DNA of 64,000 bases from Polyangiaceae bacterium (GTDB taxonomy: Bacteria > Myxococcota_A > Polyangia > Polyangiales > Polyangiaceae), in contig CBDCTZ010000009.1 in the NCBI GenBank assembly GCA_965222375.1, positions 1 to 64,000 on the forward strand, in the 5' to 3' direction. The translations under genes were made by a program, and so were the position numbers. Below are positions 11,657 through 48,433 of the stretch, one piece after another (positions within the stretch are counted from its first letter, which is position 1; each line of letters starts with the position of its first letter). Below the pieces are notes generated by a model that was not told the origin of the DNA, made no database searches, and was given only the letters and a program-made list of their open reading frames with translations.

Positions 11657-11859
11657 GCGTCACCTCGCAGCTGCGGCATGTCGTTGGCTGGCATGGCGCG
11701 GACTAGCGCCGAGCGCGCTAACTGCGACTGAAGCGCCTGGAACATGGCTTCAAAGCCAACGACGCAATGACGCAAGAGCGAATCGCCTGCCGCTTCAACG
11801 CCAGCGCATTGCACCGGAGCGGGACAGTTGGGTCGACGAGCAGGCCTCGCTTTCATCAC
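11653..11859 (-). CDS. Small hypothetical protein
   Basis: Fills the gap between two operon genes exactly, with 4-nt stop/start overlaps at both ends. No motif recognised. Confidence 0.3.
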   Translation of the reverse strand: MMKARPARRPNCPAPVQCAGVEAAGDSLLRHCVVGFEAMFQALQSQLARSALVRAMPANDMPQLRGDA

Positions 11860-13613: not shown

Positions 13614-13629
13614 CACGAATCTCCCGAGC

Positions 13630-16600: not shown

Positions 16601-19600
16601 CCTGTCCCCTCGATCTGGGGGAATGGCGGCAGAACGCTCCAGTTCGCTGGCGTCGTGCCAACAGAGGCATCGGTCCTCTGGTTGACGACCAGATCTCGAA
16701 ATACCGAATCGTACACGTCTTCGGAAACCCACCGCAGGGCCAAAATGTCGTGTCCTACCGTGGGAGACTTGCAGATTTCTCCCCAGTCTTTCCCAGCACG
16801 CAATGCCGTCAACGCACCAACGGCGTCAAAGTGTGCTGCCGTCGCGGTACCCGGCGCTGCACCGAACTGGCGTGTGCCCCCGGCCGGATCGCCGCAGGAG
16901 ATGCCGTGGAGGTTCCCCAGCGCGCCGGACAGCCAGGTCGCGATGTCCGGCACACCAAACCCGGTTCGGCTCCGGTTTTCTGCGGGGATGCGCAGGTAGG
17001 GCCCGGTGCCATACTTCGCTGACAACTCGACCAACCAGGTTGGGATCCCAGCATTCTGTGGCCATGTCATCCCCGGTGGGATGAACGCAGCCGTTCCAAC
17101 TGCCTCCCGCTCCTCTTCCGGCACGCCGGTGGGCAACTCGAAATTCACGAAAAATCCCGGGCCGTACACCGTGAACAAAGACGCGCGCTGGCCCGACGGA
17201 CCGAAGTTCGATGCGGGGAGTTGAACATCAAACAATCCCTGTTCAATGCTTCCAGACAGGGCGCCCAGGTTCCACACCGCGCCTTGAACGCGCCAGAGGA
17301 TCGCGTTCAGCTCGTCATCCACGTTTCCGTCCGGCCCACCTCCTAGCTGCGTCCCCGGCGGCGTTCTGCGGAAAAGCCGGTCATAGAGCTTCGCATCGTC
17401 CTCGACCGGGCAGGTCTGCCCGGGCCGTCGACAGCCGGGCCAGGCTCCGGTGTCGGTCGAATTCATGATCGTCGTGAGGCTCAGCTCCAGCGCCCAGTAC
17501 GGGGTGAGGCTGGTGTCCACGTCCACCCGCACTTTGAGCCGCTTGGTAAGCTCAGTAAGAGCGGTCTTCGATATCCAAGGCTGAGCCGCGAAAGTCTGAA
17601 GGTTGTGGCCGGCAAAGCTCGTCGACAAGGAAGCGACGGCGTTGTTCACCTCGTCGCATTCCGATGCCCCAGTTGGCGCACCAGCCGGAACATATTCCGC
17701 GAGGTTCAAGCCCACGACGTCATCCGGGCCCAACGTGCTCAACGAGTTGCAAAGCTCACTCGCGTAGCTCGTCCCGCATCCAAGTTTGGAATGCAGGAAC
17801 GCCTCTTTGTCTGACTCGAAATCGAGCGGGTTTTGAGTAATGAAGACCAGTGGGACCTTGTCCTCGCCCAAACACGCCTCGAGCGCTTGGTCCTTGTTGG
17901 GCTTTTTCGCAGAAACCTGCCCCTTTTCGACCTTCACGTTGTCCAGGGCCGCGTAATCACCGCAGATTTGTGCTAGGTTCTCTCCTGCAGCTTCCCGGCG
18001 GAAGTCCTTCTGCAAGCCAAGCTCAATCAGCTCCTTTCCAAGACTGTCCGCACGTTCAGCGGCCTGGCGGGCAAGGCTGAGGTAATGGCGCCAGGAATTT
18101 TCGTACTCGTCGGAATCGCTCGTCAGCTCGTTCTCCAGTGGCACGAACAGGTTCTTCAGCACGCCCCCGATACAATAGGCTGGGCTCGCGCTCAGGGATT
18201 CGGGCCCCAAGTGGGTGTTGCCGATTTTGTTGAACCCGAAGATGTCGTTGAGGTGGCGCCGCTGCTTGTCGCTGACCACGATGTTCGTGCCGCCCGTTGG
18301 GTCGTCATTGATCAAGTCGGGTTGCCGCAGCGCGATCGAGCCGAGCACCTTGCCCTTGCCCGCCGGGCTGTCCGGGTCGTTCTTCAGGATCACGTAGACG
18401 AACTTCGTCGGTAGCGTCGTCGGTGACTCGCCCGGAAAATACGTCGGCGTGAATTGCCCACTCGTCGGGAAGCGCCATAGCCCAACCGTGCCGTCGTGGC
18501 CCGTATACAATCGCTCCGCGTCCGTGAGATCTGCGTTCAACGTGAAGCTGGGCGTCGTCAGCAGGTAGTCGTTGAGGTTGGCGGGGCAATTGTTACGCAG
18601 GCGCGCGGCACAATCAGCCACCCAGGGCTCGCCGTATGCCAAGATCAACTGGCCAGCCATGTCCGTGACGTTCGACACCGCAAAGTCCTTGGGCTGAAAC
18701 CCGAGGGTGTAGAAAACGACCTCTTCGATCCCTCCGACCGACATCGAGGGATCGCTCGTGGCCACGATTCGCCCTTCCCCGCTCCACAGCTGCGCCTCTG
18801 CGGCGGCCTTTTCGCTGGTGTCCAGCAGCTCGTCCATGACTTCGCCGGCTAGCCCAGTCGAAGCCCGCACGGATTCACGAAGAACCACCAGTCGCCGCGC
18901 CAGCGCCTGACCCAATGAGTAGGAATCCTGAAACGACGTGCGCACCGCCCAGTCGGCATTCAGCAGACCATTGGCCCCGAAGTATTCGTCGCACTGAATC
19001 GCATTCTGAATGCCAGCGACCCGCGACATCACGTCGATCTCCATGTCTTGTCGCGGAATCCCGTCCTTCAGCGCAACGCCATTGACCGAGCCGAGCTCTG
19101 GCGCGACGAAGGTATCTGGTACCAAGCCGCCGCCGGGCGCGACGACGCTGGTGACGGCGGGCGCGGTGTTCAACACCCGGTACTGCGTGAACGTGCGCGT
19201 CAGCGCGAAGTTCAGGTCTGCTTCGCTCAAATCGTCGAGCACAAACTGAACCGATCGATCCAGACCGATTTCGGCCACTTGCGGATCCGCTGGCAGCAGG
19301 CCGCTTGCCGCCGCCTCCTTGCCGACGAGCTGCGCTTTCACCGCGGCCCGCACGCTGGCGGTGTTCGCTAGTTGGCTCGTGGGAATCACGATGCCCGCCT
19401 TTTCCACGATCTGCGTGGCGAGTTCCTGCCCCTTGGTTCGGATCGCGATGTCTTCGATCCGAGCATCTCGATCGGCGCCGAATGCCTGCTCGAGCAGGTC
19501 TTCCGTCGCGACCGTGCCGCACTTCGGATCCGTCGTGTACCACTCCACCGATGCGACGGCCGGCGACAGCTCCCAGCGCCCCATCACGACCCGCAGCGCA

Positions 19601-20826
19601 TGCGCCAGCGTGTTGTACGGCCCGTTGTCGTTATTGCGGTCACCCCACGCGATTTGCGCACCCCGCAATGGATCCGTAGCCTTGGCCCGCCGCATCGCGG
19701 CCCCGGCCAAGTCGGCCTCGACGGACGTGTCGATCAGCTCGTCGAGCAGGCGGCTGGCGCTGCGCAGGATCTGGGTCTGGAACTTGAGCCGGTTGGTGGC
19801 CAGGTTGGGGACGGTGGTTGAGTCGATTTGCCTCTCGGGTGGGTCCTTGGGCGGGAAATACGGAGCCTCTTCCCCCGCGGGCTCGCCGAAGATCCACTCC
19901 GAGTTTGGTTCCGCAAAGCCGATGTAATCGTCTATCGCCTTCACGAACACCTTTGAGCAGGAGCCGTCTCCCGTCTCGGTGAACCTCGCTATCGGCCAGG
20001 TGTCGTTGACCGCCAGGGTCGCCAACATGTAGATGGCTAGATCTCTAAATATGAATCTGTCGCGATTCGCCTGGGGTTTCAGCGTCCACGGGCCCGGCGG
20101 AACGCCCGGCAGCGGCGCGGCATCCGCCACTTTCTCCCAGCGCACCGGCGCAATCGCTTGAGAAAGGGCGTTCAACTCAGCGGCGATGCAGAGCAGCGCC
20201 TCGTTTTGTTGCAGCTGCTCCGAGCAGGACTCGGGTCGGCGCTGGAAGATGCTCCACGCCGTGCCGCCTCCTGACAACGCGCTCCAAGGTGGCACCACTG
20301 CCTCGTTGAGCAAGAACGTGTCCGGAATACCACCCATCTCAGGCACCATCCCGCACTCGGCGGCTGCGCCGTACACCAGCGCCCAGCCGCTGGGCATGCT
20401 CAGGTCTTGCTCGACGTTGACGCCTCCATCGTCGCCCTCGATCAAGGCCTTTTGCTTGGAGCTCGGCGCCTTCGACTTCGACACCTTCTGGTCGCCCTTC
20501 GACACGCTCTTGCCTGGCTTGGCGGTTGGCAGGCCCATCCGTTTCGCGGGCGACGCTTTGCCGTCCGCTGACGCCCCGGCTTGCAGCACTGCGTCGGTAG
20601 CACTTCCGAAACTGATCTCTTTCACCGGTGGGAACTTGACCAGCTTTCGATTCGCGCCATCGCCGACGTAGACCTGGATCGCCCACTGGCTCAGCTCGTC
20701 CGGCGGCTCGCTCGCGCCGCCAGACTTCTTCGCCGTGTCGCCGTCACCACACGAGGCGACGGCGGCCATGAGCAGCAGAAGTGCAATTCGGATCCCGTTA
20801 GTCCAATTGACCAATTGCCTTCTCAT
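13630..20826 (-). CDS. Very large lipoprotein (about 2400 aa) with coiled-coil/hydrophobic hairpin region and a C-terminus resembling the TcA TcB-binding domain
   Basis: Lipobox AVASC. Long helical stretch flanking ASGAIGGFSVGSLGGGTIAGLTNAGIGVATG. Ends GRPLDGSYRFRVW...LEDIQLVLRYRY. Start after AGGAG. The TcA resemblance is inference. Confidence 0.65.
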   Translation of the reverse strand: MRRQLVNWTNGIRIALLLLMAAVASCGDGDTAKKSGGASEPPDELSQWAIQVYVGDGANRKLVKFPPVKEISFGSATDAVLQAGASADGKASPAKRMGLPTAKPGKSVSKGDQKVSKSKAPSSKQKALIEGDDGGVNVEQDLSMPSGWALVYGAAAECGMVPEMGGIPDTFLLNEAVVPPWSALSGGGTAWSIFQRRPESCSEQLQQNEALLCIAAELNALSQAIAPVRWEKVADAAPLPGVPPGPWTLKPQANRDRFIFRDLAIYMLATLAVNDTWPIARFTETGDGSCSKVFVKAIDDYIGFAEPNSEWIFGEPAGEEAPYFPPKDPPERQIDSTTVPNLATNRLKFQTQILRSASRLLDELIDTSVEADLAGAAMRRAKATDPLRGAQIAWGDRNNDNGPYNTLAHALRVVMGRWELSPAVASVEWYTTDPKCGTVATEDLLEQAFGADRDARIEDIAIRTKGQELATQIVEKAGIVIPTSQLANTASVRAAVKAQLVGKEAAASGLLPADPQVAEIGLDRSVQFVLDDLSEADLNFALTRTFTQYRVLNTAPAVTSVVAPGGGLVPDTFVAPELGSVNGVALKDGIPRQDMEIDVMSRVAGIQNAIQCDEYFGANGLLNADWAVRTSFQDSYSLGQALARRLVVLRESVRASTGLAGEVMDELLDTSEKAAAEAQLWSGEGRIVATSDPSMSVGGIEEVVFYTLGFQPKDFAVSNVTDMAGQLILAYGEPWVADCAARLRNNCPANLNDYLLTTPSFTLNADLTDAERLYTGHDGTVGLWRFPTSGQFTPTYFPGESPTTLPTKFVYVILKNDPDSPAGKGKVLGSIALRQPDLINDDPTGGTNIVVSDKQRRHLNDIFGFNKIGNTHLGPESLSASPAYCIGGVLKNLFVPLENELTSDSDEYENSWRHYLSLARQAAERADSLGKELIELGLQKDFRREAAGENLAQICGDYAALDNVKVEKGQVSAKKPNKDQALEACLGEDKVPLVFITQNPLDFESDKEAFLHSKLGCGTSYASELCNSLSTLGPDDVVGLNLAEYVPAGAPTGASECDEVNNAVASLSTSFAGHNLQTFAAQPWISKTALTELTKRLKVRVDVDTSLTPYWALELSLTTIMNSTDTGAWPGCRRPGQTCPVEDDAKLYDRLFRRTPPGTQLGGGPDGNVDDELNAILWRVQGAVWNLGALSGSIEQGLFDVQLPASNFGPSGQRASLFTVYGPGFFVNFELPTGVPEEEREAVGTAAFIPPGMTWPQNAGIPTWLVELSAKYGTGPYLRIPAENRSRTGFGVPDIATWLSGALGNLHGISCGDPAGGTRQFGAAPGTATAAHFDAVGALTALRAGKDWGEICKSPTVGHDILALRWVSEDVYDSVFRDLVVNQRTDASVGTTPANWSVLPPFPQIEGTGAGQIDYQIVIGLPGQVTFPADTTDSGFLGYTYPQLACRHQKYGKFGIPSAAGSPGIHEVTQSCAVSNGQVLDVPYILGKPPSQQATPCNDPNECRTLAYQRTTLSLMPRSCPKENRVELFVNSYPPPFPCGAASQLAQTMALACNIGTGSVLGAVSGRPELTKLSDLEGFTRWVDQLSKDASRQASNIYLEGLPRRVVEAFNQKKVGGEAFKGDHGVKLLELRGSLEGLAGGWNRVSGNLAQLHEAIKSAQISIQGAKISQKQAMVAFAMQRLSIHASMLQSASGAIGGFSVGSLGGGTIAGLTNAGIGVATGAAQLEKVKEGEKLAAASEGNAVSAALNQLQLVSGPLYTDLQNALGDIRASASTVLAIVEQIRQNERKAKYEAAKGSGADYVEIDGQKVPFPVNTVQRRLYDATNLRYQQALKEAKYLSYVARLAIEQRLGVRLAGLTQPIGPIDAPAEWADDVCSLTGVDYTKLSTFVGPDGGTPTDAGEQAIIAEFADQYIGDYVTKLEGFVEYYNIEYPSHDGDDTTVLSLRDDLLGPPQACTVEAPNMLYYSSDLAGYDFIDVGGTPTTRGWELTPCDATGTTCLRVDRSSALAVPQTLPAAGTPPETAGNDFSWLHDFAAPGGVDAGADGGSGPEGGIPTIDLPRTVAQTVTLTAGASYVLSWWDQARAPDGTLLPAASTGVQYSVTVLAPDGSVAGSFTGAPFVPDPNPPDAGPAPSAWSERRAVGLTASQSGDYKVVFAAAAFPNELGSVLIASVQLEEAPPASLPGPYFDVKSTRLIASSNCGGLTKEDVQGAFRYACDTNNQCFYELVSPLVFDTGNLGVGDSRLTGLLAADNFNFRHITVAVNLVGTGVYDCSNNPTQSCFSKAYVDYTLNHDAFQVGVLSWTGPKDKQIFNFGSAAINHGKALAAERYITLPVGSADQALLSQAGVEKPEYRGRPLDGSYRFRVWDSPQLRWNRLEDIQLVLRYRYWSPIQPQAGQ

Positions 20827-20837
20827 CTTCCCTCTCC

Positions 20838-21887
20838 TTACGAACAGCACCGGAATCCCGACCAGAGTTTCGGATCGCCCGACCCCGGGGAGCAGTACTC
20901 GCCCTTCACCACTGCGCAGCTCGAATGGTCAGACGAACAAGCGTTCAGCCACTCGCTCTGATTTCCCACCAGGTCGAAGACCTTGTCGAACGGCGCGGTC
21001 GTACCCCGACACCATGGATCGCTCATCACAGGCTTGATTGTCGTGGTGCCCGCAATGCAGATCAGCGTGTTGAGCAGATCACCGTACGGGAACTTCGTCG
21101 TGCCCCCCTGCGTGCACGCATGCATGTGTTGACTGATCTTTGGATCGTACGTGGGCGTGAGCGGGGGTATCGCAATCGACCCGCCCCCGATCTTTCCGCA
21201 CAACCGCTTGCCCGCCCAGGCGCAGAATGCCGTGGCGTCGCACCAATCGACCGCCACGGGGATGTTCCCCGTTCCACTGAACTTCTTGTCGAAGCTGGGG
21301 TTGTCCGCGGCGCACCAGCCGGTTTGCGTCGGCGGGTTCGTTTTCGCTTCGGCGGCGAACACGTCGTACTGCGCGTGGGTCACCTCGGTGCTGTCGATGC
21401 AGAACGTGCCCACGTCGACCATCGTTGGCCCTTTGCCTTGCGGACACCCCGCAACACCGCCGCTGCCACCGGATCCCGAAGCGCCACCAGCGCCCGCGCT
21501 TCCCGATGCACCGCTGCTACCCGAGCTGCCGCCGCTGCCCGACGAGCCACTCGCACCCCCACTGCCCGCACCCGCGCCAACTCCGCCGCTCGCGCCAACT
21601 CCGCCGCTGCCGCTAGCGCCCCCGGTCGCGCCACCACCGTCGTTGTTTGTTCCACCTGTGCCGCCGGAGCATGAACAAATGCCCCACGCCTTCCCATCGG
21701 GGTTACAGATCTGGACTGCCTCCGTTGCGCAGCCTGGGCTCAGGCATGCCTGGGTCGCGCCGGGGTCGCACACTCGGTCGCCCCCACCTTCCGAGTCATC
21801 TCCACCACAGTTTGTGAGCAGCGCCGTGCCCAGTAGGCACACCGCCCAGGTGATACGCCTCAGTGGTGATCGTGTTTTCTGGTTCAT
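20838..21887 (-). CDS. Lipoprotein with formylglycine-generating-enzyme (FGE-sulfatase/SUMF1)-like domain
   Basis: LLTNC lipobox, Gly/Ser linker, FCIDSTEVT...VDWCDATAFCAWAGKRLC...DLVGNQSEW...GFRCC. Confidence 0.85.
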   Translation of the reverse strand: MNQKTRSPLRRITWAVCLLGTALLTNCGGDDSEGGGDRVCDPGATQACLSPGCATEAVQICNPDGKAWGICSCSGGTGGTNNDGGGATGGASGSGGVGASGGVGAGAGSGGASGSSGSGGSSGSSGASGSAGAGGASGSGGSGGVAGCPQGKGPTMVDVGTFCIDSTEVTHAQYDVFAAEAKTNPPTQTGWCAADNPSFDKKFSGTGNIPVAVDWCDATAFCAWAGKRLCGKIGGGSIAIPPLTPTYDPKISQHMHACTQGGTTKFPYGDLLNTLICIAGTTTIKPVMSDPWCRGTTAPFDKVFDLVGNQSEWLNACSSDHSSCAVVKGEYCSPGSGDPKLWSGFRCCS

Positions 21888-21952
21888 CCCTGCGCCCTCA
21901 GTCTCCGTCCCCTTTGGCTTCCGACATTCACCCACGTGCAATACGTGGGTGC

Positions 21953-21968
21953 AGCACGTGTCGTGCCA
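21953..21968 (-). promoter_or_regulatory. sigma54 (-24/-12) promoter upstream of the toxin-associated operon
   Basis: Minus strand TGGCACGACACGTGCT, i.e. GG-N10-GC with a TGGCACG -24 box, about 65 nt before ATG 21887. Confidence 0.65.
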
Positions 21969-22265: not shown

Positions 22266-22302
22266 TTTCAAGAGTTGTGCAAGTCTTGCTCAACTCTTGA
22301 AA
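22266..22302. repeat. 37-bp AT-rich palindrome (18-bp arms, 1 mismatch, 1-nt centre)
   Basis: TTTCAAGAGTTGTGCAAG-T-CTTGCTCAACTCTTGAAA. Confidence 0.85.
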
Positions 22303-22718
22303 AATATGTTTTGAGTCAAGCACCTACGCGATGGGGTCTGGGCGCGCTTGCCTACTGCACGCCAAGGAGCGACGCGAAGAAACCAGCACCCGAACGACAA
22401 TGAAAGGCCCCACCCATGGCCGCAATTGTGACTGCTTGCCGTGGTTCTGCGCAATGTGCGTGCGTGTCGCACCCCGGCGTTCGCGCCCTCGAGCAAGCGA
22501 GGTTTTCCGGGTTCCGGACTTGACGGGAATCAATTGGATCGCATCGCAGACCGGGCCGTATTGACACTCAACCACCCTTTGCAGCTTGGTCAGCTTCACC
22601 GCTCCGTTGCTCGCCGCGGGGCGAGGCGGGAGTCGCGCCCCTGGACAACGCAGCGAAGCGACTCCCGTGAAGCCAGCTCGAGCGAGTCTTCTCCGCTCGA
22701 TCGCGGCGTTGGAGCGCG

Positions 22719-25073
22719 TCACTTCCGCTGACGAGCTCGCCGCTTGGTCTCGGTCCGCTCCGCTCGTAGCTCGCAGACACGTTTGGCGTGGGCGAGCTCG
22801 CCGGTGTCGGGATCGAAGTTCACCCGGGCTCGGTCCCCTCGAGCCTTGATCGCGGCTCGATCATAGGCCTCCGCCGCTTCCTCTTCGACGTCGAAGCTTC
22901 CAAGCCCCACGGTCCGATTGTTGATGCCGATCTGGGCAAACCACCTGCCACCCGACCGGTGCATCGATACCCCGCGATATTGGCTCGACATGGTGCGTTT
23001 CCGTTCGCACAGAGCCTCAGACTGAAGGGTTGCCGCATCTGCCGGCTTTAGCTTTCCTTTCCGGTACTTGAAGTTCAGCTCAGCGTCTTCGCCGAAGTAG
23101 AAGCAGGCTGCGCGATCGTAAGCGCGGGCAGCGGCTTTTTCGGTTTGCCACGAGCCCAGCGACAAGAACTCTCCTGAGAGCTGCATGAATGCCTTCCAGG
23201 GCCGCGAGCCTCCTCCGGACAGCAGCTTGCGGCGCCCGCCCTTGCCCCTGCTCTCGTGCCGAAACCCCTTGCGGCTGCCATGGCGATTGCTCCACGAAAC
23301 ACCGAAATATTCGCTGGTGTTGTGGCGCGTCTTGAATTGCTTGCGAGCCAGACGCTGCAGCTTCTGTGGAGATGCTGGCCCGAGCTTCGCGCTCACGCGC
23401 GGGAAGTTGAGTTCGGCAGGAAGGCCAAGATGCAGAGCGCCACGGTCCCGCGCGATTGCTGCATCTCGCCCGCTTTTCCAACGCCCCAAGAACACGTTGC
23501 GGCCGTTGCAGTTGATCGACGCCGCGAAGCGGTCGGTTCGCGGCTCGTAGAGGACGCCCACCCAGCGCATGGCCATCTCATCAAGGCGGCGGCGGCGCGC
23601 TTGCCGCGCCTTACGACTCGACACGCCACACCGCAGTCTGCCCAGTAGTTCCTCGCCTGTCTCTGGGTCGAAGTTCAAGCGCGCAGCGCGGCCCTGGATC
23701 TGAAGCGTCCGTCGGTCGAACTCACGGGCGGCTTCTTCCTCTGTTTCGAACGGTCCAATGTTCTGCCGTATGCCATCGATCGAGACCGAGCACGACCAGC
23801 TACTACCGGTGAAGACAACACCGCGGTATTTGCTTCGGGGATTTTCCAGACCCGCTTTTCGACACGCGAGTCGAGCTTCCGTCTTGAGGTCGTCCGGTGT
23901 CGCCGGTCCCCTTTTCTTGGCAGCCGCAGGCAGGTTCAGTGCCGCCTCTGGGTATCCTAACCACAGTGCTGCGCGGTCATGGGCGAGGGCTGCCGCTTCC
24001 TCACTTGGCCAGAGCCCGAGGCCTACCGAGCGCGGGGGGCTTGTCGAAGTGGCAATCATTGCTTGCCAGCGCGGGCCGTTTCGCAACACGCCGGCGTAAG
24101 AGCTGCCCCGCTGACCCCTCCTTGCGCGCTCGCGTTGCTCCAGCACAAAACGTTCGAGCTCATCGCTTGTTGTCGGCTCTGAGGTGCCCTTGGCCTCATG
24201 CCGGAGGGCGTGCTTCCGTTTCGCCCCAGGCTTCTTTCGCGTGGACCGCGCCGCTCGGAGTTCGCACACTCGCTTGGCGTTGGTGAAATCGCCTGTGTCC
24301 GGATCGAAATTTACCCGTGCACGGTCTCCAAACGCCTTGATCGCGGCTCGGTCGTACGCCCTCGCGGCGTCCTCTTCGACATCAAAACCTCCCAGAATCT
24401 GCGTTTGACCATCAACGGAGATGCCCGCCATCCAGCCGCCGCCGCTCGCTTTGAGCGAAACACCTCGATAACGACTCGTGGTCGCGCGTTTCACCGCGCC
24501 TAGGGCCTCGGATTGCAAGGTAGCTGCGTCCGCGGGACGCAACTCTCCTTCCTCGTAGTCAAAGTTGAGCTCGGCGCTTTCACCATTGTAGTACCTCGAA
24601 GCGCGGTCATAGGCGCGAGCTGCTGCTTCCTCCGTTTCCCATGAGCCAAGCTGCAAACGCTTGCCAGCACTCCGTAGCGCCGCATTCCAACGTCCCCGGC
24701 TGCTGCTTTTTCTTCCACTGGACTCTTGGGACCCGCGTTCAACCAGCCAAACACCGCGATAGCTGCTCGTTGTGCCATTTCTCGTCCTGAGCTTTTCGCG
24801 TGCAAGCTTCTTCAACACTTGCGGTGATGCCGGCCCGAGCTTCTTGCTCACCCGCGGATGGTTGAGCTTCAAGGCCAGAGCGAAATGCAGCGCCGCGCGG
24901 TCGCGAGCGATCGCCGCGTCACGCGCCTCCGTCCAACGTCCCAGGTAGACGCTACGGCCATTCACATGAACAGTCGCAGCGAATCGACCGGTCTGCCGAT
25001 CGTACCCGACACCGGTGTTACTGCTGTGACCATGGCTGCCGCGCGCTTTGCCCACGAGATCCTCCACAAACAC
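22719..25073 (-). CDS. Protein of eight tandem AP2 DNA-binding domains
   Basis: Eight units of the form S.YRGV...W.A.I...G....[15 protein letters not shown]......A.LNF. Units 1-3 resemble units 6-8. Confidence 0.88.
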
Positions 25074-25254
25074 CGGCTCACTTCGCGTCGGATGTTCGAA
25101 CCGTCAGAACCATCGATTCGTAGGATAGCGCAGCGCCAGCCGCGCGGGCCAGTGCGCCTCCCGCAGCGACCCGTCTCCTCAAGTGGCCCCACTGGAAGCG
25201 TGCGCTGCGCAGCAATGAAGAGGGGGGCCAGGCGTTACGCAGCCGTCAGAATGA

Positions 25255-26625
25255 CTACGCTTTGCGAGGCCGCGCCTTGCGGCGTCGTGTCTTGCTCCGC
25301 CGAGCGGGCTCACGAGTGGCCGGTACATCACTGGCGCGCTTGCCGCAGAGCTCTTCCCCGGTAGTGGGATGAAAGTTGAGGTAAGCGCGCTTGCCCAAGT
25401 GCCGCGAGGCTTGGGCATCGTACCAGCGAGCGGCGGACTCCTCGTCGTCGTGGACGGAGCTGTATCGCTGGCCTTGACGGTTGAAAGCCGCTTTCCAGGT
25501 TGAGCTGCCTGCATTGAAACGAACCCCGCGAAAGCGGCTGGAGGTTCGCGCTTTGGACGGCGCGTTTGCCTCGGCCACCAAAGTCGCCGCGTCGGCGGGG
25601 ACCAGCGCGGATGCCTGCTTCGGAAAATTCAGGCGAAGACGCTCCGGCGGAGCGTCGTAGTAGAACAGCACCGCCCGATCGCGAGCCTGTGCCGCGGCAC
25701 GCTGAGAGGGCCAGCTCCCCAGGTGTTTCGTGGTCGAGCGTCCACGTTCGGTCAGTACTAGCTGCGCCACCCACGGCCGCGTCCTCTCGGAAGCAAGCAG
25801 ACAGACGCCCTCATAGCGACTGCTAGTGCCTTGCTTGAAGGGCTTGCGCGCAATCCGTCGCGCCTCTGGCAACGAAAGCGCCGAGCCGGCCTCCTTCGGG
25901 AAGTTCAAGCGCGCATTTTTGCCGTTGCGCCACTTTTCTACGCGGTCGCGGATCAGCGCCGCTTGTTTCTCGTCGGCAAAGTGCCCGACGTGCCTGAACG
26001 TACCGTCTATACGCACCCTGACTGCCCAAAGCTCCTGGGCCGAGTCCCAGTAAACCCCCCAGAATGGGCTGCTGCCTCCTGTCAGCTCTTGGTGTCGAGC
26101 GTGGGCCAGCCGCCGGAGCTCGGCTACCGACGCGCCGCCCAGCTTCTTGGCTGCTCGTGGCAAGTTGAGCTGTACATCGTCGGCGCCGAAACCAAGCAGG
26201 GCTCGATCACGGGCAAGCGCCGCCTCACGCTCGGTCGGCCAGATCCCCAGTGCAAAGGTCTTTCCCTCGAGCGTCACCCGCGCACTGAACGCTCCCTCCC
26301 GGAAGCCCTCGGTTTGGCGGGTTACGCCTTCGTATCGGACTCTGCCGCTGGCACGCCGGTACTCGAGCCGCGCTAGCTTTCGCAGCTCGGCCTGCGAGGC
26401 GGGGCCCAACTTCTTCGCACGTTTCGGGAAGTTCAGCTCCCGTGAGGCCCCGAGGAACAGCACCATTCGGTCGTGGGCCAGCGCGGCGCCTTTCTCTGTG
26501 AGCCAAACGCCAGCATGGACTATCCGCTCGCCGACCCTGAACTTCGCCTGAAAGCTACCGCTGCGGCCACCGGAACGAACGCGCTGAACGCCGTTGTAGC
26601 GCGAGGTTTTGCGTCTGGCTGCCAC
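25255..26625 (-). CDS. Protein of five tandem AP2 DNA-binding domains
   Basis: SRYNGV, VRYEGV, SPFWGV, SRYEGV and SRFRGV units, each ending AA...D....LNF/L. Confidence 0.85.
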   Translation of the reverse strand: MAARRKTSRYNGVQRVRSGGRSGSFQAKFRVGERIVHAGVWLTEKGAALAHDRMVLFLGASRELNFPKRAKKLGPASQAELRKLARLEYRRASGRVRYEGVTRQTEGFREGAFSARVTLEGKTFALGIWPTEREAALARDRALLGFGADDVQLNLPRAAKKLGGASVAELRRLAHARHQELTGGSSPFWGVYWDSAQELWAVRVRIDGTFRHVGHFADEKQAALIRDRVEKWRNGKNARLNFPKEAGSALSLPEARRIARKPFKQGTSSRYEGVCLLASERTRPWVAQLVLTERGRSTTKHLGSWPSQRAAAQARDRAVLFYYDAPPERLRLNFPKQASALVPADAATLVAEANAPSKARTSSRFRGVRFNAGSSTWKAAFNRQGQRYSSVHDDEESAARWYDAQASRHLGKRAYLNFHPTTGEELCGKRASDVPATREPARRSKTRRRKARPRKA

Positions 26626-26874
26626 GAGCAGGCACTCTACCGTTGGCAGGTAGGAGACGCCAAGGCAGATGGAACCTGTTGCCGTAGCCTAGCCGGCGTG
26701 CGCGGCACTCTCTACTGCAAGGGCACGTGGCAGATACGACCGGCGCCGCTGCCGAAGGTGGGCGCTTCGTAGGCGTCAATTCCCGAGACGCGCGCCCAGT
26801 GGCTCCGCTGTCCGAAGATCGGCAAAGTTCCGCGGCCCGTTGCACCCCATCGCCCCCCGCGCGAAGCTCCGCCC

Positions 26875-27771
26875 GTGGCACCGCGACGCAAGAGTACGCC
26901 GCACCGCTCCTGGACCCTCGCTGATCTGCGCAAAGCGGCCCAGGCGCATAAGGGCCGCTGCCTGAGCCGAGCATATGCGGGCCTAAACGAAGCCCACAAG
27001 TGGCGCTGCGCTAAGGGCCACGTGTTCGAGATGCGCGCCATCGCCGTCGTGAAATCGCGGGCGCAGAGCCCGCAGCAGGGCCGGCGGAAACGCGCTCGGC
27101 GCACCAGGCCAGCTCGCGCGGCGCCATCCGCCGACGCGGACCCAGCGCCAGGGCCAAGACCCGAGCTACCACCCGAAGCGGTTCCGCAGCCCGCGGTCCC
27201 CGCGACAGCGCGCACTGCAGACCCGCCCACACGCGGCCTGCTGACCACGCGTGAGGCCACCGCCTACTGCGGCTTCAAGAGCGATTCCGCTCTGCGAAAA
27301 GCGAAGCACGAGGGCCGAATTGTGGCCGCGGGCCGCCGTGGCGCCCGGGGCACGCTCATGTGGGAGACCCAGGAGCTCGACCGATTCCTGCGCGGCGATT
27401 CACCTGGTACGATCCCCTCGGATCGTCCGGGCGCGCCGCCATTTGGAGGCGTACATGGACAACTGGAAGAAGCGTTGGAAGAGCTGGATCAAGCCGACGA
27501 GGCTACCCGGCGTTTGGAAAAGAAAGGAAGGAGGTCATCTAGTGCGCGCCCGAGTCACCAACCCGACGACGGGGCGCATGGAGGAAATCCGGAAGGTGCT
27601 GCCCGAAGCCGATCAGGCAGCGGCGTTCAAGTGGCTGTCGGACGAGCGGGCACGCGTGCGGGCCGGCCTCGGCTCAGCTCAGCTAGTGAGGACGCGCTTC
27701 GGCGACTTCGCGATTTCCGTGTTGGAGCACAAGGTCCAGCAGGGACATCTGCGAAGCCAAAAAAGCGCTGA
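26875..27771 (+). CDS. Excisionase-like HTH protein with N-terminal partial zinc-ribbon module; tail overlaps the integrase
   Basis: GRCLSRAY...WRCAKGHVF and LLTTREATAYCGFKSDSALRKAKHEGRI...WETQELDRFL (HTH_17-like), directly upstream of the integrase. Confidence 0.6.
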   Translation: MAPRRKSTPHRSWTLADLRKAAQAHKGRCLSRAYAGLNEAHKWRCAKGHVFEMRAIAVVKSRAQSPQQGRRKRARRTRPARAAPSADADPAPGPRPELPPEAVPQPAVPATARTADPPTRGLLTTREATAYCGFKSDSALRKAKHEGRIVAAGRRGARGTLMWETQELDRFLRGDSPGTIPSDRPGAPPFGGVHGQLEEALEELDQADEATRRLEKKGRRSSSARPSHQPDDGAHGGNPEGAARSRSGSGVQVAVGRAGTRAGRPRLSSASEDALRRLRDFRVGAQGPAGTSAKPKKR

Positions 27772-28906
27772 ACGGTGGAAGTACACTCTGGAGCACTTGA
27801 TCGGCGGGACCGTTACCGCTGACGGGGCTCGCCATGTGCCCGGGTTCGGCGACTTCTTTGTCGATCAGATCCGACCCGAGCACGTGGAGCAGTGGCGTGC
27901 TGGGGTCCTGGAGTTGATCGCGTCGGGCCAGTATTCGCCCAACACGACCAACAGCTGGCTTTCGATCTTGCGTGTGATCGCGCGGGAGGCGAAGCGCCGG
28001 CACAAGCTCCGGGATCTGTTCACCGAGGGCGTGCCGGACTTCGACACGTCCGAGCACGTTACGTACACCGAGGAGGCGCCGAACTCGCTGACCAGCGAGC
28101 AAGTGCCGTTGTTCTTGACGAAGCTGCTGGAGCTGCATCCCCGGCACTACGCCATGAGCTATCTCGGGCTGGCCACCGGGCTTCGGCCGTCGTCGCTGCG
28201 TCCATTGCGCCGCTGTGGGGAGACTCCAGACGTCCAGTGGGAGAGCTGCCGCTTGTTCGTACGTCGCTCGCAGACGTCGGGCCAGCGGGTCTTGAACACC
28301 ACCAAGCAGAAGAAGCGCTACTGCATCGAACTGCCAAAGGAGGTCATGGAGGTGCTGCGCTGGCACACGGAAACTCAGCTCGTAACGCCTGAGCAGCAGG
28401 GATCTGAGCTGCTTTTTCCGTCCGTTACGGGCGGTTATCGCTCACCAACGGTGCTCAACAAGCCCTTCGCGGAAGTGTCCGAGGCGATTGGCCTGGGATA
28501 CTCCTTCACCCAAATCGGCATGCGGCGCACGTTCAATGACTTGGCCCGGACTGCCCAGGTCGAAGCCATCGTAACGCGCAGCATCTCGGGGCATCTGACC
28601 GAACGGATGCAGGACCACTACTCGACAGTGCAACCCGAGGAGCAGCGCGAGAGCATCGCGCGCGTCATCGACTTGATGACGGCTCGCCGGGCGAGGGAAG
28701 CGGCTGACTCGCAGTCCGAAAGTGGCGGGGCGACCGACGACCCGCCGCAACAGAACGGCGCGTCAGGTGGTACTCCAAGTGGTACTCCAGATGGCGCTAT
28801 CGACAGCGAAAACGGTACCCGTTCGGGGCCACCTGGAGTCCAAAGTGGTACTCCCGGTGGTACTCCACTGTCTTCAAGTGGTACTCCGAAGGGTCGCGTG
28901 GGGTAG
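27455..28906 (+). CDS. Tyrosine recombinase/phage-type integrase
   Basis: LATGLRPSSL (Arg), TTK (Lys), GMRRTF (Arg), ISGH...MQDHY (His, Tyr). GGAGG RBS before ATG 27455. Adjacent to the tRNA. Confidence 0.92.
   Translation: MDNWKKRWKSWIKPTRLPGVWKRKEGGHLVRARVTNPTTGRMEEIRKVLPEADQAAAFKWLSDERARVRAGLGSAQLVRTRFGDFAISVLEHKVQQGHLRSQKSAERWKYTLEHLIGGTVTADGARHVPGFGDFFVDQIRPEHVEQWRAGVLELIASGQYSPNTTNSWLSILRVIAREAKRRHKLRDLFTEGVPDFDTSEHVTYTEEAPNSLTSEQVPLFLTKLLELHPRHYAMSYLGLATGLRPSSLRPLRRCGETPDVQWESCRLFVRRSQTSGQRVLNTTKQKKRYCIELPKEVMEVLRWHTETQLVTPEQQGSELLFPSVTGGYRSPTVLNKPFAEVSEAIGLGYSFTQIGMRRTFNDLARTAQVEAIVTRSISGHLTERMQDHYSTVQPEEQRESIARVIDLMTARRAREAADSQSESGGATDDPPQQNGASGGTPSGTPDGAIDSENGTRSGPPGVQSGTPGGTPLSSSGTPKGRVG
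28767..28887 (+). repeat. Five direct copies of GTGGTACTCC, putative integrase arm-type binding sites
   Basis: Copies start at 28767, 28779, 28845, 28857 and 28878, about 60-180 bp from the tRNA 3' end. Confidence 0.8.
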
Positions 28907-28945
28907 TGCGCTTGTCTAACTACCGAACTTCACTTTGCTTATTAG

Positions 28946-29017
<72 letters not shown>

Positions 29018-29029
29018 GGAGAGCTGGGA

Positions 29030-29058
29030 GGAGTAGCTGCCCGTCGGAGGTCTGTCAA
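29030..29058 (-). promoter_or_regulatory. sigma70-type promoter of tRNA-Gly
   Basis: TTGACA-N17-TACTCC, ending 12 nt upstream of the tRNA. Confidence 0.6.
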
Positions 29059-29129
29059 GCAAGCTGAAAAGCGCAACGAAGTTCGACGCTTCGGAGCGGT
29101 GGGGGGAGCCCGAACCGGCGAAAAGTGGG

Positions 29130-30143
29130 CTATTTGCGAGCGAAAAAGTGCACGTTTTGGGAGGAACCTTCGCTGACGGTGAAGTAGCCCTGGCTGTCGG
29201 CGGCGAAGCCCACGGACTCGCCTTGCTGTTCGGTCAGGGAGGGGGCAGCGCAGGGCGCGGATTGGAAGGCTTGGGCGAAAGCCTGGCCGGGCGAGCGCCG
29301 CCACAGGAACACACCGACATAGGTGCGAACCGCGAGCATGTCGCCGCCGGGTGAGATGTCGCCGCCGGTTACCAGTGGGCTGCCGGCCAGAGCGCCTTGG
29401 CCAAACATGAGTCGGGTGGCTTCGGTCATCGTCACGTTGCCGCCGCCGGCGGGCAGGGGCCCGGGGCTTTGAAACAGCTGCGAGACCCCAGTGTCTGTCT
29501 TGGTCAGGATGTAGAGCTTTCCGTCCTTGGGATCCACGAACAGGGCCTCGGCGTTGTGGGGACCATCGGCGTAGGTCAGCGTGAAGGTTTCCACATTCCG
29601 CAGGGTTCGGGCCACTGCAGGGCCGGCGGGATTGATGACGGGTTCCGCCACCCGATACACGTTGACGAACGCGCGGGTGGACTTGTTGTCTCCGATGTCG
29701 CCCAAGTACAAGTAGTGCTCGTTCGGGGTAGGACCTGGACCGGTGGCGAGATCTTCCCAGTCCTTGGCCTTGGCGTTCGAGAGTGTGAGCTCAGCCAAGT
29801 GGGTTCCGTCCAAGCCCATGGCGAAGACTCTGGGACCGTCACCGGAGTCGTTGTGCACGAACAGCACGCCCTGGTTCTTTCGGCTCGCGATGATTCCGGA
29901 AGCTTCGGTGACCTCCGCTGACGCGATCTTGCCCAGGGCCTTGCCGGCCTCGAACTGTGGGCAGGCTGAGCCGCTGGCGGTCTCGGCGTCGGAACTGCCT
30001 CCGGCGCTTCCCCTCACTGCCTCCATTTTCGCATGCGCGGAGGCATCCACGGGACTGCCTGCCAGGCCCCGGGTGTCGGGCGAGCGGTTGTTCAGTTCCG
30101 CGCCGCACGCGAGCAGCAGCAGCCCGCAGGAGACCATGCGCAT
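29130..30143 (-). CDS. Secreted lipoprotein, probable beta-propeller
   Basis: LLLAC lipobox. EASG, HNDSGD, DWEDLA, GDIGDN and NAEAL motifs of a conserved secreted family. Confidence 0.7.
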   Translation of the reverse strand: MRMVSCGLLLLACGAELNNRSPDTRGLAGSPVDASAHAKMEAVRGSAGGSSDAETASGSACPQFEAGKALGKIASAEVTEASGIIASRKNQGVLFVHNDSGDGPRVFAMGLDGTHLAELTLSNAKAKDWEDLATGPGPTPNEHYLYLGDIGDNKSTRAFVNVYRVAEPVINPAGPAVARTLRNVETFTLTYADGPHNAEALFVDPKDGKLYILTKTDTGVSQLFQSPGPLPAGGGNVTMTEATRLMFGQGALAGSPLVTGGDISPGGDMLAVRTYVGVFLWRRSPGQAFAQAFQSAPCAAPSLTEQQGESVGFAADSQGYFTVSEGSSQNVHFFARK

Positions 30144-30219
30144 CCGCTACTTCTAGCGACCTTTGGGCCACGCTGCCAGGTGCTTGCGGCCCCCTGCAAA
30201 CTGCGTGCAGAAAGCCAAT

Positions 30220-31377
30220 ATGCCTCGCCCGCCTCAGGTTTCCCGCTTCGTCGCCTCGCTTTCGGATCAGGTTTATAGCCGCTTGGTTCAACGCGCGAAG
30301 GAAATGTCCGGCCCCGTCTACGCGCTTCACGTGGGCGATACATATCTGGAGCCCATGCCCGAGGCGCGAGCCGAAGCCCAGCGCGCGGCGGACCACCCGC
30401 GGCTTCACAACTATGCGGCGGTGCAGGGTGAGGCGGAGCTGCTCGATGCCATCATCGAGCGGGCGGCGAAGGAAAAGGACGCGGTGCTCAAGCGCACCCG
30501 GTTGCAGGTGACGCTGGGTGCGACGGGCGGGCTGAGTACTGTGGCCGCCGCGTTGCTGGAGCCCGGCGATGAAGTTCTGGTCTTGTCGCCGTATTGGCCA
30601 TTGATTCGCGGCATCATCGTCGGACGCGGCGCCAAGGCCGTGGAGGTGCCATTCTACGATCGCTGTACGGCTCCGGACTTTGACGCCGAGCAAGCGCTCG
30701 AGCAAGCCTTGAGCGACAAGACCGTGGCGCTCTACATGTGCAGTCCCAACAACCCCACGGGTCGAGTGCACACGCCCGAGCTGCAGGCTGCGTTGTGTCG
30801 CTTTGCGGAGCGTCACGACCTGTGGATCTTCTCCGATGAGGCCTACGAGGATCTCGCCTTCGCGGCGGCGCCCACCCCGGCCTGGATCAGTCACCCAGAG
30901 CGCACGCTTTCCTGTCACACCGCGTCCAAGAGTTTCGGCCTGGCCGGAGTCCGCGTCGGCTGGGTCTACGGGCCCGAAACGGCCATGGCCGCAGTCCGCG
31001 GCACGCAGACCTTTTTGACCTATTGCGCGCCGAAGCCGCTGCAATACGGCGTGGCTCGGGCGCTTCGCGCCGGAAGGCCGTGGCTAGAGCAGGCCCGCAC
31101 GGCGTATCAAGAGGCGGGAAACGCGGCGGCCCGCAGCCTGGGATTGCCCGAGCCGGAAGGGGGCACGTTCCTGTTTTTCGACGTGGCGCCCTGGTTGAAA
31201 GCTGGGGAGTCGGTGACGGACTTTTTGGAGCGGGCGCTTGCGGCAGGGGTACTGCTCACCCCTGGTGGCGCGTCCGGGGCGGACTACGCGAGCTGGGTGC
31301 GGCTGTGTTTTTCGGCCGTGCCGCCGACGGAACTGGCCCAGGCCACAGAGCGACTGCGGGACCTAATGCCGCGCTAG
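30220..31377 (+). CDS. PLP-dependent aminotransferase class I/II
   Basis: SPNNPTG, DEAY, SKSFGLAGVRVG and VRLCFS motifs. Confidence 0.93.
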   Translation: MPRPPQVSRFVASLSDQVYSRLVQRAKEMSGPVYALHVGDTYLEPMPEARAEAQRAADHPRLHNYAAVQGEAELLDAIIERAAKEKDAVLKRTRLQVTLGATGGLSTVAAALLEPGDEVLVLSPYWPLIRGIIVGRGAKAVEVPFYDRCTAPDFDAEQALEQALSDKTVALYMCSPNNPTGRVHTPELQAALCRFAERHDLWIFSDEAYEDLAFAAAPTPAWISHPERTLSCHTASKSFGLAGVRVGWVYGPETAMAAVRGTQTFLTYCAPKPLQYGVARALRAGRPWLEQARTAYQEAGNAAARSLGLPEPEGGTFLFFDVAPWLKAGESVTDFLERALAAGVLLTPGGASGADYASWVRLCFSAVPPTELAQATERLRDLMPR

Positions 31378-31380
31378 CGG

Positions 31381-32715
31381 TCACTTGTTGCGCTTGCCCT
31401 TGCGTGGGCGCGGAATGCCGAAGGCGTCGAGGCGCGCAACCAGAGTGCGCCGAGGCATGCCCAGCATCTTGGCCGCCTTGGTTTGGTTGCCCCCACAGTC
31501 CTCGAGGGCCTGGATGATCCGTGCACGCAAGACCTCATCCAGCTCGGCCCTGAGGGGCGCGCGGCGGCGACGCTTGTTGGAGAGCGTCGAGCGCAACTTG
31601 CGTGGCAGATCCTTGACCGCGAGCGTTGCTTTGTCCGAGGCGAGCAACACCGTGCGAAGCATCTGAATCAGTTCCCTGAAGTTCCCCGGAAAGTCGTAGC
31701 CGGCGAACAGTGTCAGCACGTCGGGCTGTAGCTCTGGCACGGGCTGTTTGAGTTCCGACGCCGCAGTCTCGAGGGCTTCTTGGACCAGGCTTGGTAGCTC
31801 TGCGCTGCGCTCGCGCAATGCCGGCACTTCCACGATCACGCCTACGATCCGAAGATAGAGTGCGGGGCGCATGGTGCCTCGGGATACCGCGGTCTCGAGT
31901 CGCTCGTTGCTGCTGGCAATGACTCGCGCGTCGATGCCGATGCTCTGACTCGAGCCCAGAGGCTGAAACTCGCGAAGCTCCAGGCAGCGGGCCAAGCGAT
32001 CTTGGATTCGGGGTGCTAGGTCAGTCACCTTGTCCAGATACAACGTGCCGTTCCCGGCGCGTTGGAACGCGCCTTCGTAGGCAGCATCACCGCTTCGCAC
32101 GAAGCCCGCCACGCAGCCGAAAAGCTCGCGCTCGATGGCCTTCTCTGACCAATCTGCACAACCCAGGCGCACGAAGGGGTGTTCGGAGTTCGGCGAATTC
32201 GTGTGCAAAGCATCAGCAAAGCGCCGTTTTCCAGAGCCCGCCTCCCCAACGATGTTCACGGCGATGTGGCTTCGGCCTAAGCGTTCGGCGAGCCCGAGCA
32301 GCTCGTGTTGCGATGGAATACTGCGGTCGACCCTCAAAGCAGGCGGGGTCGTGGACTTGAGCCCAACCGGCGCGCGGACGACCATGACTGCGTCGCCAAG
32401 CTCCACCAGCATCCCAAAGCGCAGGGGCCGTGGTTGGTCGGGGATCATGGGGATACCGTCTACATGCGTGCCGTTGGCACTACCGAGATCGGTGATCGAA
32501 AGGGGCGGGCCTGTTTCGAGTCGTGCGTGAGCTCGGGAAACAGAGGGGTCATCAACCACCACGTCGCAGTCGTTGCCTCGGCCGAAAACCAAACTTGTTT
32601 CTGCGGCCAGGGGGACTTCGGTGAAGCCGCCGTCCCAGTACACGTGTGCGCACAACGCGTCCCGATGAAGCTTCAGCCTCTCAGTGGACTGGTCTTCACC
32701 GGCTTCTGCGCACAT
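31381..32715 (-). CDS. FHA-domain sigma54-interaction (bEBP-type) regulator with Fis HTH; degenerate GAFTGA
   Basis: FGR...SVSRAHA...GSANGT (FHA), GEAGSGK, ELFGCVAGFVRSG, FPGNFREL, GGNQTKAAKMLGMPRRTL. Confidence 0.9.
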   Translation of the reverse strand: MCAEAGEDQSTERLKLHRDALCAHVYWDGGFTEVPLAAETSLVFGRGNDCDVVVDDPSVSRAHARLETGPPLSITDLGSANGTHVDGIPMIPDQPRPLRFGMLVELGDAVMVVRAPVGLKSTTPPALRVDRSIPSQHELLGLAERLGRSHIAVNIVGEAGSGKRRFADALHTNSPNSEHPFVRLGCADWSEKAIERELFGCVAGFVRSGDAAYEGAFQRAGNGTLYLDKVTDLAPRIQDRLARCLELREFQPLGSSQSIGIDARVIASSNERLETAVSRGTMRPALYLRIVGVIVEVPALRERSAELPSLVQEALETAASELKQPVPELQPDVLTLFAGYDFPGNFRELIQMLRTVLLASDKATLAVKDLPRKLRSTLSNKRRRRAPLRAELDEVLRARIIQALEDCGGNQTKAAKMLGMPRRTLVARLDAFGIPRPRKGKRNK

Positions 32716-32837
32716 GCACCGCCAGTCTACCCTGCCCGCCCCCAGGGTGAGAAACTCGCAGTGGAGCGAAGCTGTCCCGTAACAAAAGATGTATCAGTAA
32801 TCATCGCCGCTGGGAATGTGCGTGTGTTGCCCACACA

Positions 32838-32859
32838 AGTTGTGCAAGTTTTGCTCAAC
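32838..32859. promoter_or_regulatory. Palindromic operator-like site, 21/22 identical to 22273-22294
   Basis: AGTTGTGCAAGTTTTGCTCAAC, about 125 bp upstream of the FHA-bEBP start. Confidence 0.7.
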
Positions 32860-32904: not shown

Positions 32905-33000
32905 CTAGCCAGGACTCTTCTTGGCGAGGGCGTGGAGGCACGCATACGCAGCGTATTTGTAGCTTTCAGCGAGCGAAGGATAACTGAAGACGCTGTCGAC
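32905..33000 (-). pseudogene. Remnant resembling the C-terminus of soluble pyridine nucleotide transhydrogenase
   Basis: VDSVFSYPSLAESYKYAAYACL resembles the SthA C-terminal motif VFNYPTLAEAYKxAA. The rest of the gene is absent. Confidence 0.5.
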
Positions 33001-33136
33001 TTTGGCACCCAAGTGCGCCGCGGTCCGCCATTCCAGCGTTGCTCGGGGATGAAGGTGATCCCGCTCCGACCCTTCGCCTCCGTGAGCGTAGCTCACGCCG
33101 GATCGTTCGGGCCGAGTTCGGCGTTGGGTGGCACGC

Positions 33137-42431: not shown

Positions 42432-42556
42432 CGGTTCCCCTTGGAATCTGAAGTGTCGCGGCGAGCATATCCCGCGTCGCCGCTGCGCAACACGCACCCT
42501 CGACCTGGGCGATGAATTTCGGAAAAACTTGCCGATCTTTCGGGGAAAAACCGAGT

Positions 42557-44665: not shown

Positions 44666-44688
44666 GGCTCCGCAGCTTAGCGGATTTC

Positions 44689-48369: not shown

Positions 48370-48433
48370 GATCACGGTGTGGTCGCATAGCCCGGCTCGG
48401 GCAGCGCCGCACGTCCTGGGGCGAGGTTTGGGG

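Follow-up and report, generated by a model that had tools for sequence, protein, structure and literature searches.

A near-palindrome shared by a degenerate FHA regulator gene and an island toxin operon as a candidate operator of a genus-specific regulon in uncultured Polyangiaceae

The stretch of DNA analysed here, referred to as the window, comprises the first 64,000 bases of contig C9 (C9:1-64000) in a Polyangiaceae genome (G000) of 10,555,502 bases and 64% G+C. It carries two copies of a short near-palindrome, one upstream of a toxin operon on a tRNA-associated island and the other upstream of a core gene for a regulator with an FHA domain (31381-32715, minus strand). Genome comparison indicates that this site is a real, conserved element of operator type belonging to a genus-specific regulon. 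As for its function, we consider it fairly probable that the near-palindrome serves as the operator of this regulator, which would act without sigma-54, be gated through its FHA domain and control its own gene together with about a dozen other units.

The two 22-mers, at 22273-22294 and 32838-32859, are identical at 21 of 22 positions, the sole difference being one base of the spacer. The palindrome is imperfect in each: two 8-bp arms, complementary at 7 of 8 positions, flank a 5-bp spacer. These are the only two places in the whole genome within 2 mismatches of the 22-mer, and 100 dinucleotide-preserving shuffles of the window gave no match within 3 mismatches. Site 1 (22273..22295, a 23-bp near-palindrome with its core at 22274-22294) is found on the island side, upstream of an operon led by an FGE-sulfatase gene, 332 nt from the first start codon of that leading open reading frame (ORF; 20838-21941, minus strand). 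Site 2 has the same motif (32838..32859, core 32839-32859) and precedes the ATG of the regulator gene by 123 nt on the core side, a position kept in four congeners. Both are intergenic by a codon-usage gene caller, and between them are situated a tyrosine integrase gene (27251-28906, plus strand) and tRNA-Gly(GCC) (28945-29017, minus strand). The original prediction, made from the window alone, had described near-identical intergenic sites on either side of a tRNA boundary, and the coordinates, the gene calls and the intervening tRNA and integrase genes all agree with that description.

The motif family, A-GTTGNGCA-N5-TGCNCAAC-T, is of low copy number, with 13-16 copies in this genome at one fixed spacing. 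The pattern GTTG[AT]GCA-N5-TGC[AT]CAAC was found in seven exact copies at a spacing of 5 and in none at spacings of 2-4 or 6-10; when up to 1 mismatch was allowed, there were 13 copies at a spacing of 5, against none at spacings of 3, 4, 6, 7 and 8. A genome-wide scan of this kind was the check put forward in the original prediction, and 12 of its 13 sites fall outside called genes, which make up 86% of contig C9, with the 13th at the very beginning of a low-scoring ORF. One more site, the 14th, has 2 mismatches; it is intergenic and upstream of a Ser/Thr kinase gene. Candidate gene starts occur within 400 nt of 13 of these 14 sites, the remaining one being located between convergent gene ends. 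The flanks of the 14 sites share no similarity, and the sites are therefore not copies of a repeat element. An abundant dispersed repeat unrelated to gene starts, the picture that would have spoken against the original prediction, was thus not seen.

A weight matrix trained on 52 congener sites, with G000 left out of the training, was run as well. At 25 bits or more it recovered 12 sites in this genome and 1 in the reversed genome, and at 20 bits or more 16 and 4, respectively. Inside the window it returned the two reported sites only, with scores of 31.7 bits for site 1 and 34.5 bits for site 2. In the matrix consensus the 21-mer is extended by an A at its start and a T at its end, in agreement with the extent given in the original prediction. 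As is expected of an operator or regulon motif, the motif is enriched at a single spacing, is intergenic and keeps its place upstream of orthologous genes.

To place the motif in a wider context, a set of 30 relatives was used, made up of five congeners (G001-G005) and 25 genomes of other genera. The motif proved specific to a single genus of uncultured myxobacteria. At up to 1 mismatch, strand matches numbered 13 in G000, 29 in G001, 33 in G002, 28 in G003 and 5 in G005; none was found in G004, a member of the same genus whose genome is 98% complete, and the 25 genomes of other genera had 0-2 each. When the variable positions were set to N and no mismatch was allowed, there were 25 places in G002, 3 in G005 and none in G004, G045 and G016, with the reversed-pattern control giving 0 in all five.

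The ortholog of the regulator was then tracked through the same genus. Its best matches have 63% identity in G001, 62% in G003, 58% in G002 and 44% in G005, and the best match in G004 (39%) is at the level of a paralog. The motif occurs 124-178 nt upstream of the regulator gene at all four congener ortholog loci (G001, G002, G003 and G005), so that, with site 2 itself, it precedes this gene in 5 of the 5 genomes that have the ortholog. It was seen at none of 6 paralog loci and, within 1 mismatch, around none of 138 more distant homologs; these came from scans of genomes and metagenome contigs that yielded homologs of at most 40% identity and were used as negative controls. In the alignment of the upstream regions of the five genomes the motif stands out as a conserved island, and a second conserved block (32761..32797, minus strand), between site 2 and the start codon of the regulator, may be a promoter or a leader. 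Because the regulator gene carries the site in all five genomes with an ortholog, and the congener lacking the ortholog also lacks the site, the leading candidate for a protein that binds the motif is the FHA regulator next to site 2, an assignment that we favour modestly, with most of the remaining weight on another factor. The 6-N5-6 geometry of the dyad suits a dimer of a Fis-type helix-turn-helix (HTH) protein.

The regulator is a protein of 444 amino acids with an N-terminal FHA domain (PF00498, E 4e-15), a central AAA+ sigma-54-interaction domain (PF00158, E 3.5e-38) and a C-terminal HTH_8 domain (E 7.7e-13). The last two represent the architecture of an enhancer-binding protein (EBP). 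In addition to the Pfam match, the FHA domain has the conserved Gly-Arg, Ser-x-x-His and Asn-Gly residues, and G45, R46, S58, S60, H63, N81 and G82 are invariant in nine homologs. We take these residues to form the phosphothreonine pocket.

The AAA+ domain, on the other hand, is degenerate. At the GAFTGA position the sequence is AGFVRSG, with equal degeneration in G001-G003, and Walker B reads LDK in G000 and LDR in G001-G003 as against LDE in the paralogs. Both motifs are kept in four paralogs and in the G005 ortholog. Among 112 homologs (E <= 1e-40), a GAFTGA-like motif is kept in 90, and both changes are found only in the four closest, which are at least 57% identical and come from metagenome-assembled genomes named Polyangiaceae by their source. 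Because GAFTGA and the Walker B glutamate have been lost, the protein is judged from its sequence not to be a functional sigma-54 activator. It has instead the combination of EBP architecture, lost GAFTGA and non-consensus Walker B by which atypical EBPs are defined in the available part of PMC6158489. In four other FHA-EBP homologs from metagenomes (P0025, P0038, P0067 and P0096) the whole GAFTGA stretch is absent, in a different manner, and sigma-54 coupling may have been lost more than once in FHA-EBPs.

Taken together, we infer binding of the site by the regulator, action at promoters of sigma-70 type and control by phosphorylation. The regulator would work without sigma-54, most likely as a dimer or higher oligomer that contacts DNA with its Fis-type HTH. 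The ligand of the FHA domain, in all likelihood a phosphothreonine produced by a Ser/Thr kinase, would set its activity. The regulator would act on its own gene by way of site 2 and on about a dozen other transcription units, which include a gene for a cytoplasmic Ser/Thr kinase and operons led by FGE-sulfatase genes; one of these operons, reached by way of site 1, is the toxin operon of the tRNA-Gly island. The original prediction had wired the island cargo into a host regulon, and genome comparison supports this, with the site marking one regulon that covers core genes as well as island cargo. The route that it proposed, through a neighbouring, auto-regulated FHA regulator, stands in part: this protein is the best candidate binder and its own gene bears the motif, but, although described there as a bacterial EBP, it does not appear to be a functional one, and sigma-54-type promoters are not clearly enriched near the sites.

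The candidate targets, surveyed by Pfam scans of flanking genes and by clustering of 54 candidate target proteins, fall into a small conserved core of four members and a variable periphery. The core consists of the regulator gene itself (5 genomes), FGE-sulfatase-domain genes preceded by the site at a distance of 160-330 nt (7 places, 4 genomes), the gene for a 476-aa cytoplasmic Ser/Thr kinase (4 genomes; in this genome at contig C14, 802888-804318) and an unnamed gene common to G000 and G003. The orthologs of the kinase in G003 (79% identity), G001 (78%) and G002 (69%) all have the motif upstream; G004 has an ortholog of 57% identity, yet no motif anywhere in its genome. A link to Ser/Thr-kinase signalling, part of the original prediction, thus gains a concrete candidate in a kinase gene that is a conserved, motif-bearing member of the predicted regulon. 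Three of the site-bearing FGE-sulfatase genes lead operons with a protein of 2300-2400 amino acids, and two of these operons extend to a TcB/TcC-like toxin gene.

The operon downstream of site 1 lies on the minus strand and is one of these. Its first gene encodes the FGE-sulfatase-domain protein (20838..21941; Pfam), whose likely true start, from upstream alignments, is the ATG at 21887, conserved in G002; this gene also contains an exact 18-nt tandem duplication (21573-21608). It is followed by a protein of 2406 amino acids (13630..20850) which belongs to no known family but occupies the position that TcA has in Tc loci. No match to it was found in Pfam, NCBIfam, the PDB sequences or the Atlas, and no similarity to TcA was seen in its sequence; in G002 and G003, motif-bearing FGE genes are followed by homologs of 38-44% identity. 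Next is an ORF of 665 amino acids (11856..13853) that overlaps the one before it and whose start is uncertain; its sole match is a weak myxobacterial cysteine-rich repeat, and its G002 counterpart has 602 amino acids. The operon then runs into a fused TcB/TcC-like (RHS cocoon) protein of 2546 amino acids with a TseH-like C-terminal domain (4016..11656), which has matches to SpvB, TcdB_toxin_midN, FG-GAP_3 and TseH in Pfam and to the Rhs core and YD repeat in NCBIfam.

A TcB/TcC cocoon of the Tc toxin complex is therefore represented here. As in Tc (ABC) loci, SpvB, TcdB_toxin_midN, FG-GAP, YD-repeat and Rhs-core elements are combined with a variable C-terminal toxin domain, and a very large protein is encoded just upstream of the cocoon. 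Unlike those loci, the operon has a large partner without sequence similarity to TcA, is led by an FGE-sulfatase-domain gene and ends in a TseH-like C-terminus; its host is also a soil-type myxobacterium, in contrast to the insect pathogens known for Tc loci.

The island setting of this operon is indicated by the integrase (Pfam Phage_integrase, 27.5 bits against a curated cut-off of 27.1), which lies by the 3' end of the tRNA-Gly that marks the boundary. In G002 the same tRNA-Gly, a 337-aa gene, an aminotransferase gene and the regulator gene occur in the same order, again with an integrase at this tRNA, but the cargo beyond it is different (L142, G002:C14:144000-158300) and includes the integrase, an IS66 fragment, a UvrD-type helicase, an OLD/AAA_15 ATPase and an HATPase_c_3 protein. 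This marks the tRNA as a hot spot of integration and makes the toxin operon, in this genome, part of the island cargo. The UvrD and OLD/AAA_15 ATPase genes of L142 form a Gabija-like pair. No copy of the tRNA end that would represent a direct attachment (att) repeat was found in 1-30000, although the window begins at a contig end and the far boundary may fall outside it. The last 140 nt of the integrase ORF, beside the tRNA, include four copies of an 18-nt repeat (AAGTGGTACTCC...; 28765-28893), which could be arm-type sites of the integrase or a repeated peptide. The upstream neighbour of site 1 on the island is a gene for an AP2-domain protein of 784 amino acids (22719..25073, minus strand; Pfam), within which 22752-22904 and 24243-24395 form a 153-nt direct repeat of 78% identity.

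The homologous operon of G002 continues with 602-aa and 2555-aa TcB/TcC genes and is found beside a large serine recombinase. Since homologous operons in two congeners carry the operator at a similar distance but in other genomic places, the operator travels with the operon. Acquisition of the operator by the island on its arrival was considered and rejected, given the motif at these homologous operons elsewhere. The leader of the toxin operon begins with ATGAACCA, is conserved at the nucleotide level, and includes an element of -24/-12 type; the same module is present near 614445 (minus strand) of contig C11, at a paralogous toxin locus of this genome. This conservation is non-coding, because the reading frame differs between the paralogs. 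About 250 nt of upstream sequence is shared with the C11 locus, which has no palindrome (best matrix score below 0), and a third paralog, at C9:404065, has no palindrome either. An AP2-like coding sequence precedes the C11 paralog too, as read from the sequence rather than from a domain scan.

The architecture of the regulator invites a more conventional explanation, in which the motif would be an upstream activating sequence of the classical kind, used by an active EBP to drive sigma-54 promoters. The -24/-12 element of the toxin leader (21953..21968, minus strand) is close to consensus, scoring 19.9 of 20.6; site 1 is about 305 nt upstream of it, and the likely ATG at 21887 follows after about 65 nt. 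Furthermore, rpoN is present in this genome, the G005 protein retains GAFTGA and the Walker B DE, and a -24/-12-like element occurs 51 nt from the site of the G005 regulator gene. These points have to be set against the loss of GAFTGA and of the Walker B glutamate in G000-G003, where no -24/-12 element precedes the regulator gene. Sigma-54-like elements scoring at least 18 were found in 8 of 132 site-flanking segments, compared with about 4 expected from their genome-wide density, which is no clear enrichment; the scoring matrix was built from a consensus sequence. With 254 elements of 19 or more genome-wide, one of such a score across the 132 segments is about the chance expectation. The element before the toxin operon is near-identical in the C11 paralog, where the module does without the palindrome, partly kept in G002 and absent in G003. 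Activation of sigma-54 promoters from the motif is thus very unlikely in our view. The toxin operon may have a sigma-54 promoter served by another activator, with the palindrome as a separate input. That the motif might itself be a -24/-12 promoter was rejected by eye on account of its spacing.

A more serious contender is that the motif is the operator of a different genus-specific DNA-binding protein, with the FHA regulator, the kinase and the toxin operons merely its targets. All the evidence tying the motif to the regulator is correlative, and other regulator genes are close at hand: an OmpR-type response-regulator gene is found just upstream of three operons for FGE and large proteins (L006:8043-8810, L144:3283-3984 and L145:3696-4490), whether or not the palindrome is there, and AP2-domain genes adjoin site 1. 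Yet the OmpR-type genes also flank a paralog lacking the motif (L145), members of the OmpR family usually bind direct repeats, and AP2 genes are absent from the other sites. The FHA regulator is, by comparison, the sole regulator gene among the recurring target families and is a target wherever its ortholog is found. We therefore regard another binder as unlikely, if well worth keeping in mind.

It was also considered whether the sites might be structural or mobile DNA rather than a protein operator, for instance a terminator, an RNA element that forms a hairpin or one end of a small mobile repeat. The sites are palindromic, and several are near mobile or defence genes (RVT, AbiEii, GmrSD and Mu transposase). 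Site 1 in particular lies within an extended palindrome of 37 bp (22266..22302), with 8 extra complementary bp on each side and fold z-scores of -4.4 and -6.3 on the two strands. Among 65 sites it is the only one with a contiguous extension of more than 5 bp, and site 2 folds no better than shuffles (z about 0). The variable arm position is symmetric in only 15 of the 65 sites, which shows that base pairing is not being preserved. Consensus scans found no terminator at either window site, the 14 flanks in G000 are unrelated, as described above, and the position upstream of orthologous core genes is conserved across species. A structural or mobile origin is accordingly the least credible of the explanations considered, and a very improbable one. 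The orientation of the asymmetric arm relative to the downstream gene showed no bias (17 vs 9 of 26). Paired sites 24-34 bp apart occur in congeners (G002:C5:755216/755250, G003:C81:45262/45295 and G001:C147:13882/13906), the G003 pair being about 500 nt upstream of groES, and a pair 202 bp apart was seen in G000 (C15:1520566/1520768). Such pairs would suit cooperative or higher-order binding.

Several observations weigh against the reading that we prefer, in which the FHA regulator acts through the motif without sigma-54. At up to 1 mismatch the reversed-pattern control gave 3 matches in G000, and 7 of the 65 sites are inside a called ORF, mostly at its first bases. Consensus scans found no sigma-70 promoter near either window site, and the nearest promoter-like element at the toxin operon is the -24/-12 element, which a protein lacking GAFTGA could not activate. 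The C11 paralog has the same 250-nt promoter module without a palindrome, so the site is not needed by that module. Distances from site to start range from 14 to more than 300 nt, with no common promoter position, and 35 of the 54 candidate target proteins have no counterpart among the other targets; these singletons include an S8 peptidase, a Kelch protein, a reverse transcriptase, a Mu-type transposase and other accessory genes. The orthology of the G005 protein rests on 44% identity together with the site, its gene not being syntenic with the orthologs in the other genomes. Finally, the regulator gene could itself be a mere conserved target of another factor.

With regard to promoters, one orthologous pair of loci (L004 and L076) has a sigma-70-like -35/-10 pair that starts 9 nt past the motif, as read by eye. 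A 7-mer count over 42 upstream regions gave no second shared motif of general occurrence. A ACATCTTTTGTT-like element is common to the leaders of the regulator gene and the toxin operon, but it is present at only three related places in the genome. Elsewhere in the window, a short ORF at 32905-33100 (minus strand) has an end sequence that continues into a full gene in G001 and G003, and seems to be a remnant in this genome; the full gene looks like the dimerisation end of a pyridine-nucleotide disulfide oxidoreductase. A cluster at 39135-48540 (minus strand) encodes a Tubulin_2-domain protein of 1146 amino acids, a VWA protein and an S8 peptidase of 1283 amino acids with PA and DUF11 domains.

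The regulator can be compared with a small number of known systems. TyrR and NtrX provide examples of autoregulation or repression by proteins of EBP type. In the available part of PMC6158489 six atypical, sigma-54-independent EBPs are described, namely VpsR, TyrR, PhhR, HupR, HsfA and NtrX, and the regulator resembles them in its domain order, lost GAFTGA, non-consensus Walker B and C-terminal HTH. It differs from them in that its N-terminal sensor is an FHA domain, rather than a receiver or ACT/PAS domain, and in that its family is confined to four sequence clusters of uncultured Polyangiaceae. The predicted regulon differs as well in holding a Ser/Thr kinase gene and Tc-like toxin operons. 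No FHA domain is mentioned alongside the six characterised proteins in that part of PMC6158489, and a literature search for an atypical EBP with an FHA domain found no printed case.

Among the myxobacteria, PexR of Myxococcus xanthus is an EBP that acts as a dimer, binds interrupted palindromes upstream of its targets and can also down-regulate a sigma-A promoter, according to the part of PMC12754779 available. It thus shares with the regulator described here an EBP-type origin and interrupted palindromes upstream of its candidate targets. PexR, however, has kept its Walker and GAFTGA determinants and is an activator of sigma-54 promoters. Its signal is peroxide, sensed through a GAF domain, and its repeat is CACCG-n6-CGGTG (same source). 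The canonical FHA-EBPs of Myxococcota, including the paralogs in this genome, have the same FHA, AAA+ and HTH_8 architecture at 34-43% identity, but they differ in mostly keeping a GAFTGA-like motif, and the palindrome was absent from the 6 paralog and 138 distant-homolog loci noted above.

A tentative evolutionary scheme can be drawn from these data, although as a whole it is more likely to be wrong in some part than right. An EBP lineage would have lost its coupling to sigma-54 while keeping its DNA site and its FHA input, and its regulon would have grown from about 3 sites (G005, with the canonical protein) to 13-27 (G000-G003, with the degenerate one). It would now form a kinase-coupled circuit, with the gene of a cognate Ser/Thr kinase among its members, into which mobile Tc-like operons bring the operator as a ready-made plug, whether in a tRNA island or beside a serine recombinase.

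If the regulator does bind the site, it would represent an FHA-gated member of the small class of sigma-54-independent, EBP-like regulators, and the island operon would, if this holds true, be a clear case of mobile toxin cargo carrying the operator of a lineage-specific host regulator. The genus also provides natural controls, in the paralogous toxin locus without a site, the congener that has the kinase ortholog but neither regulator nor site, and the congener with a canonical regulator. These controls make the rewiring of an EBP regulon directly testable.

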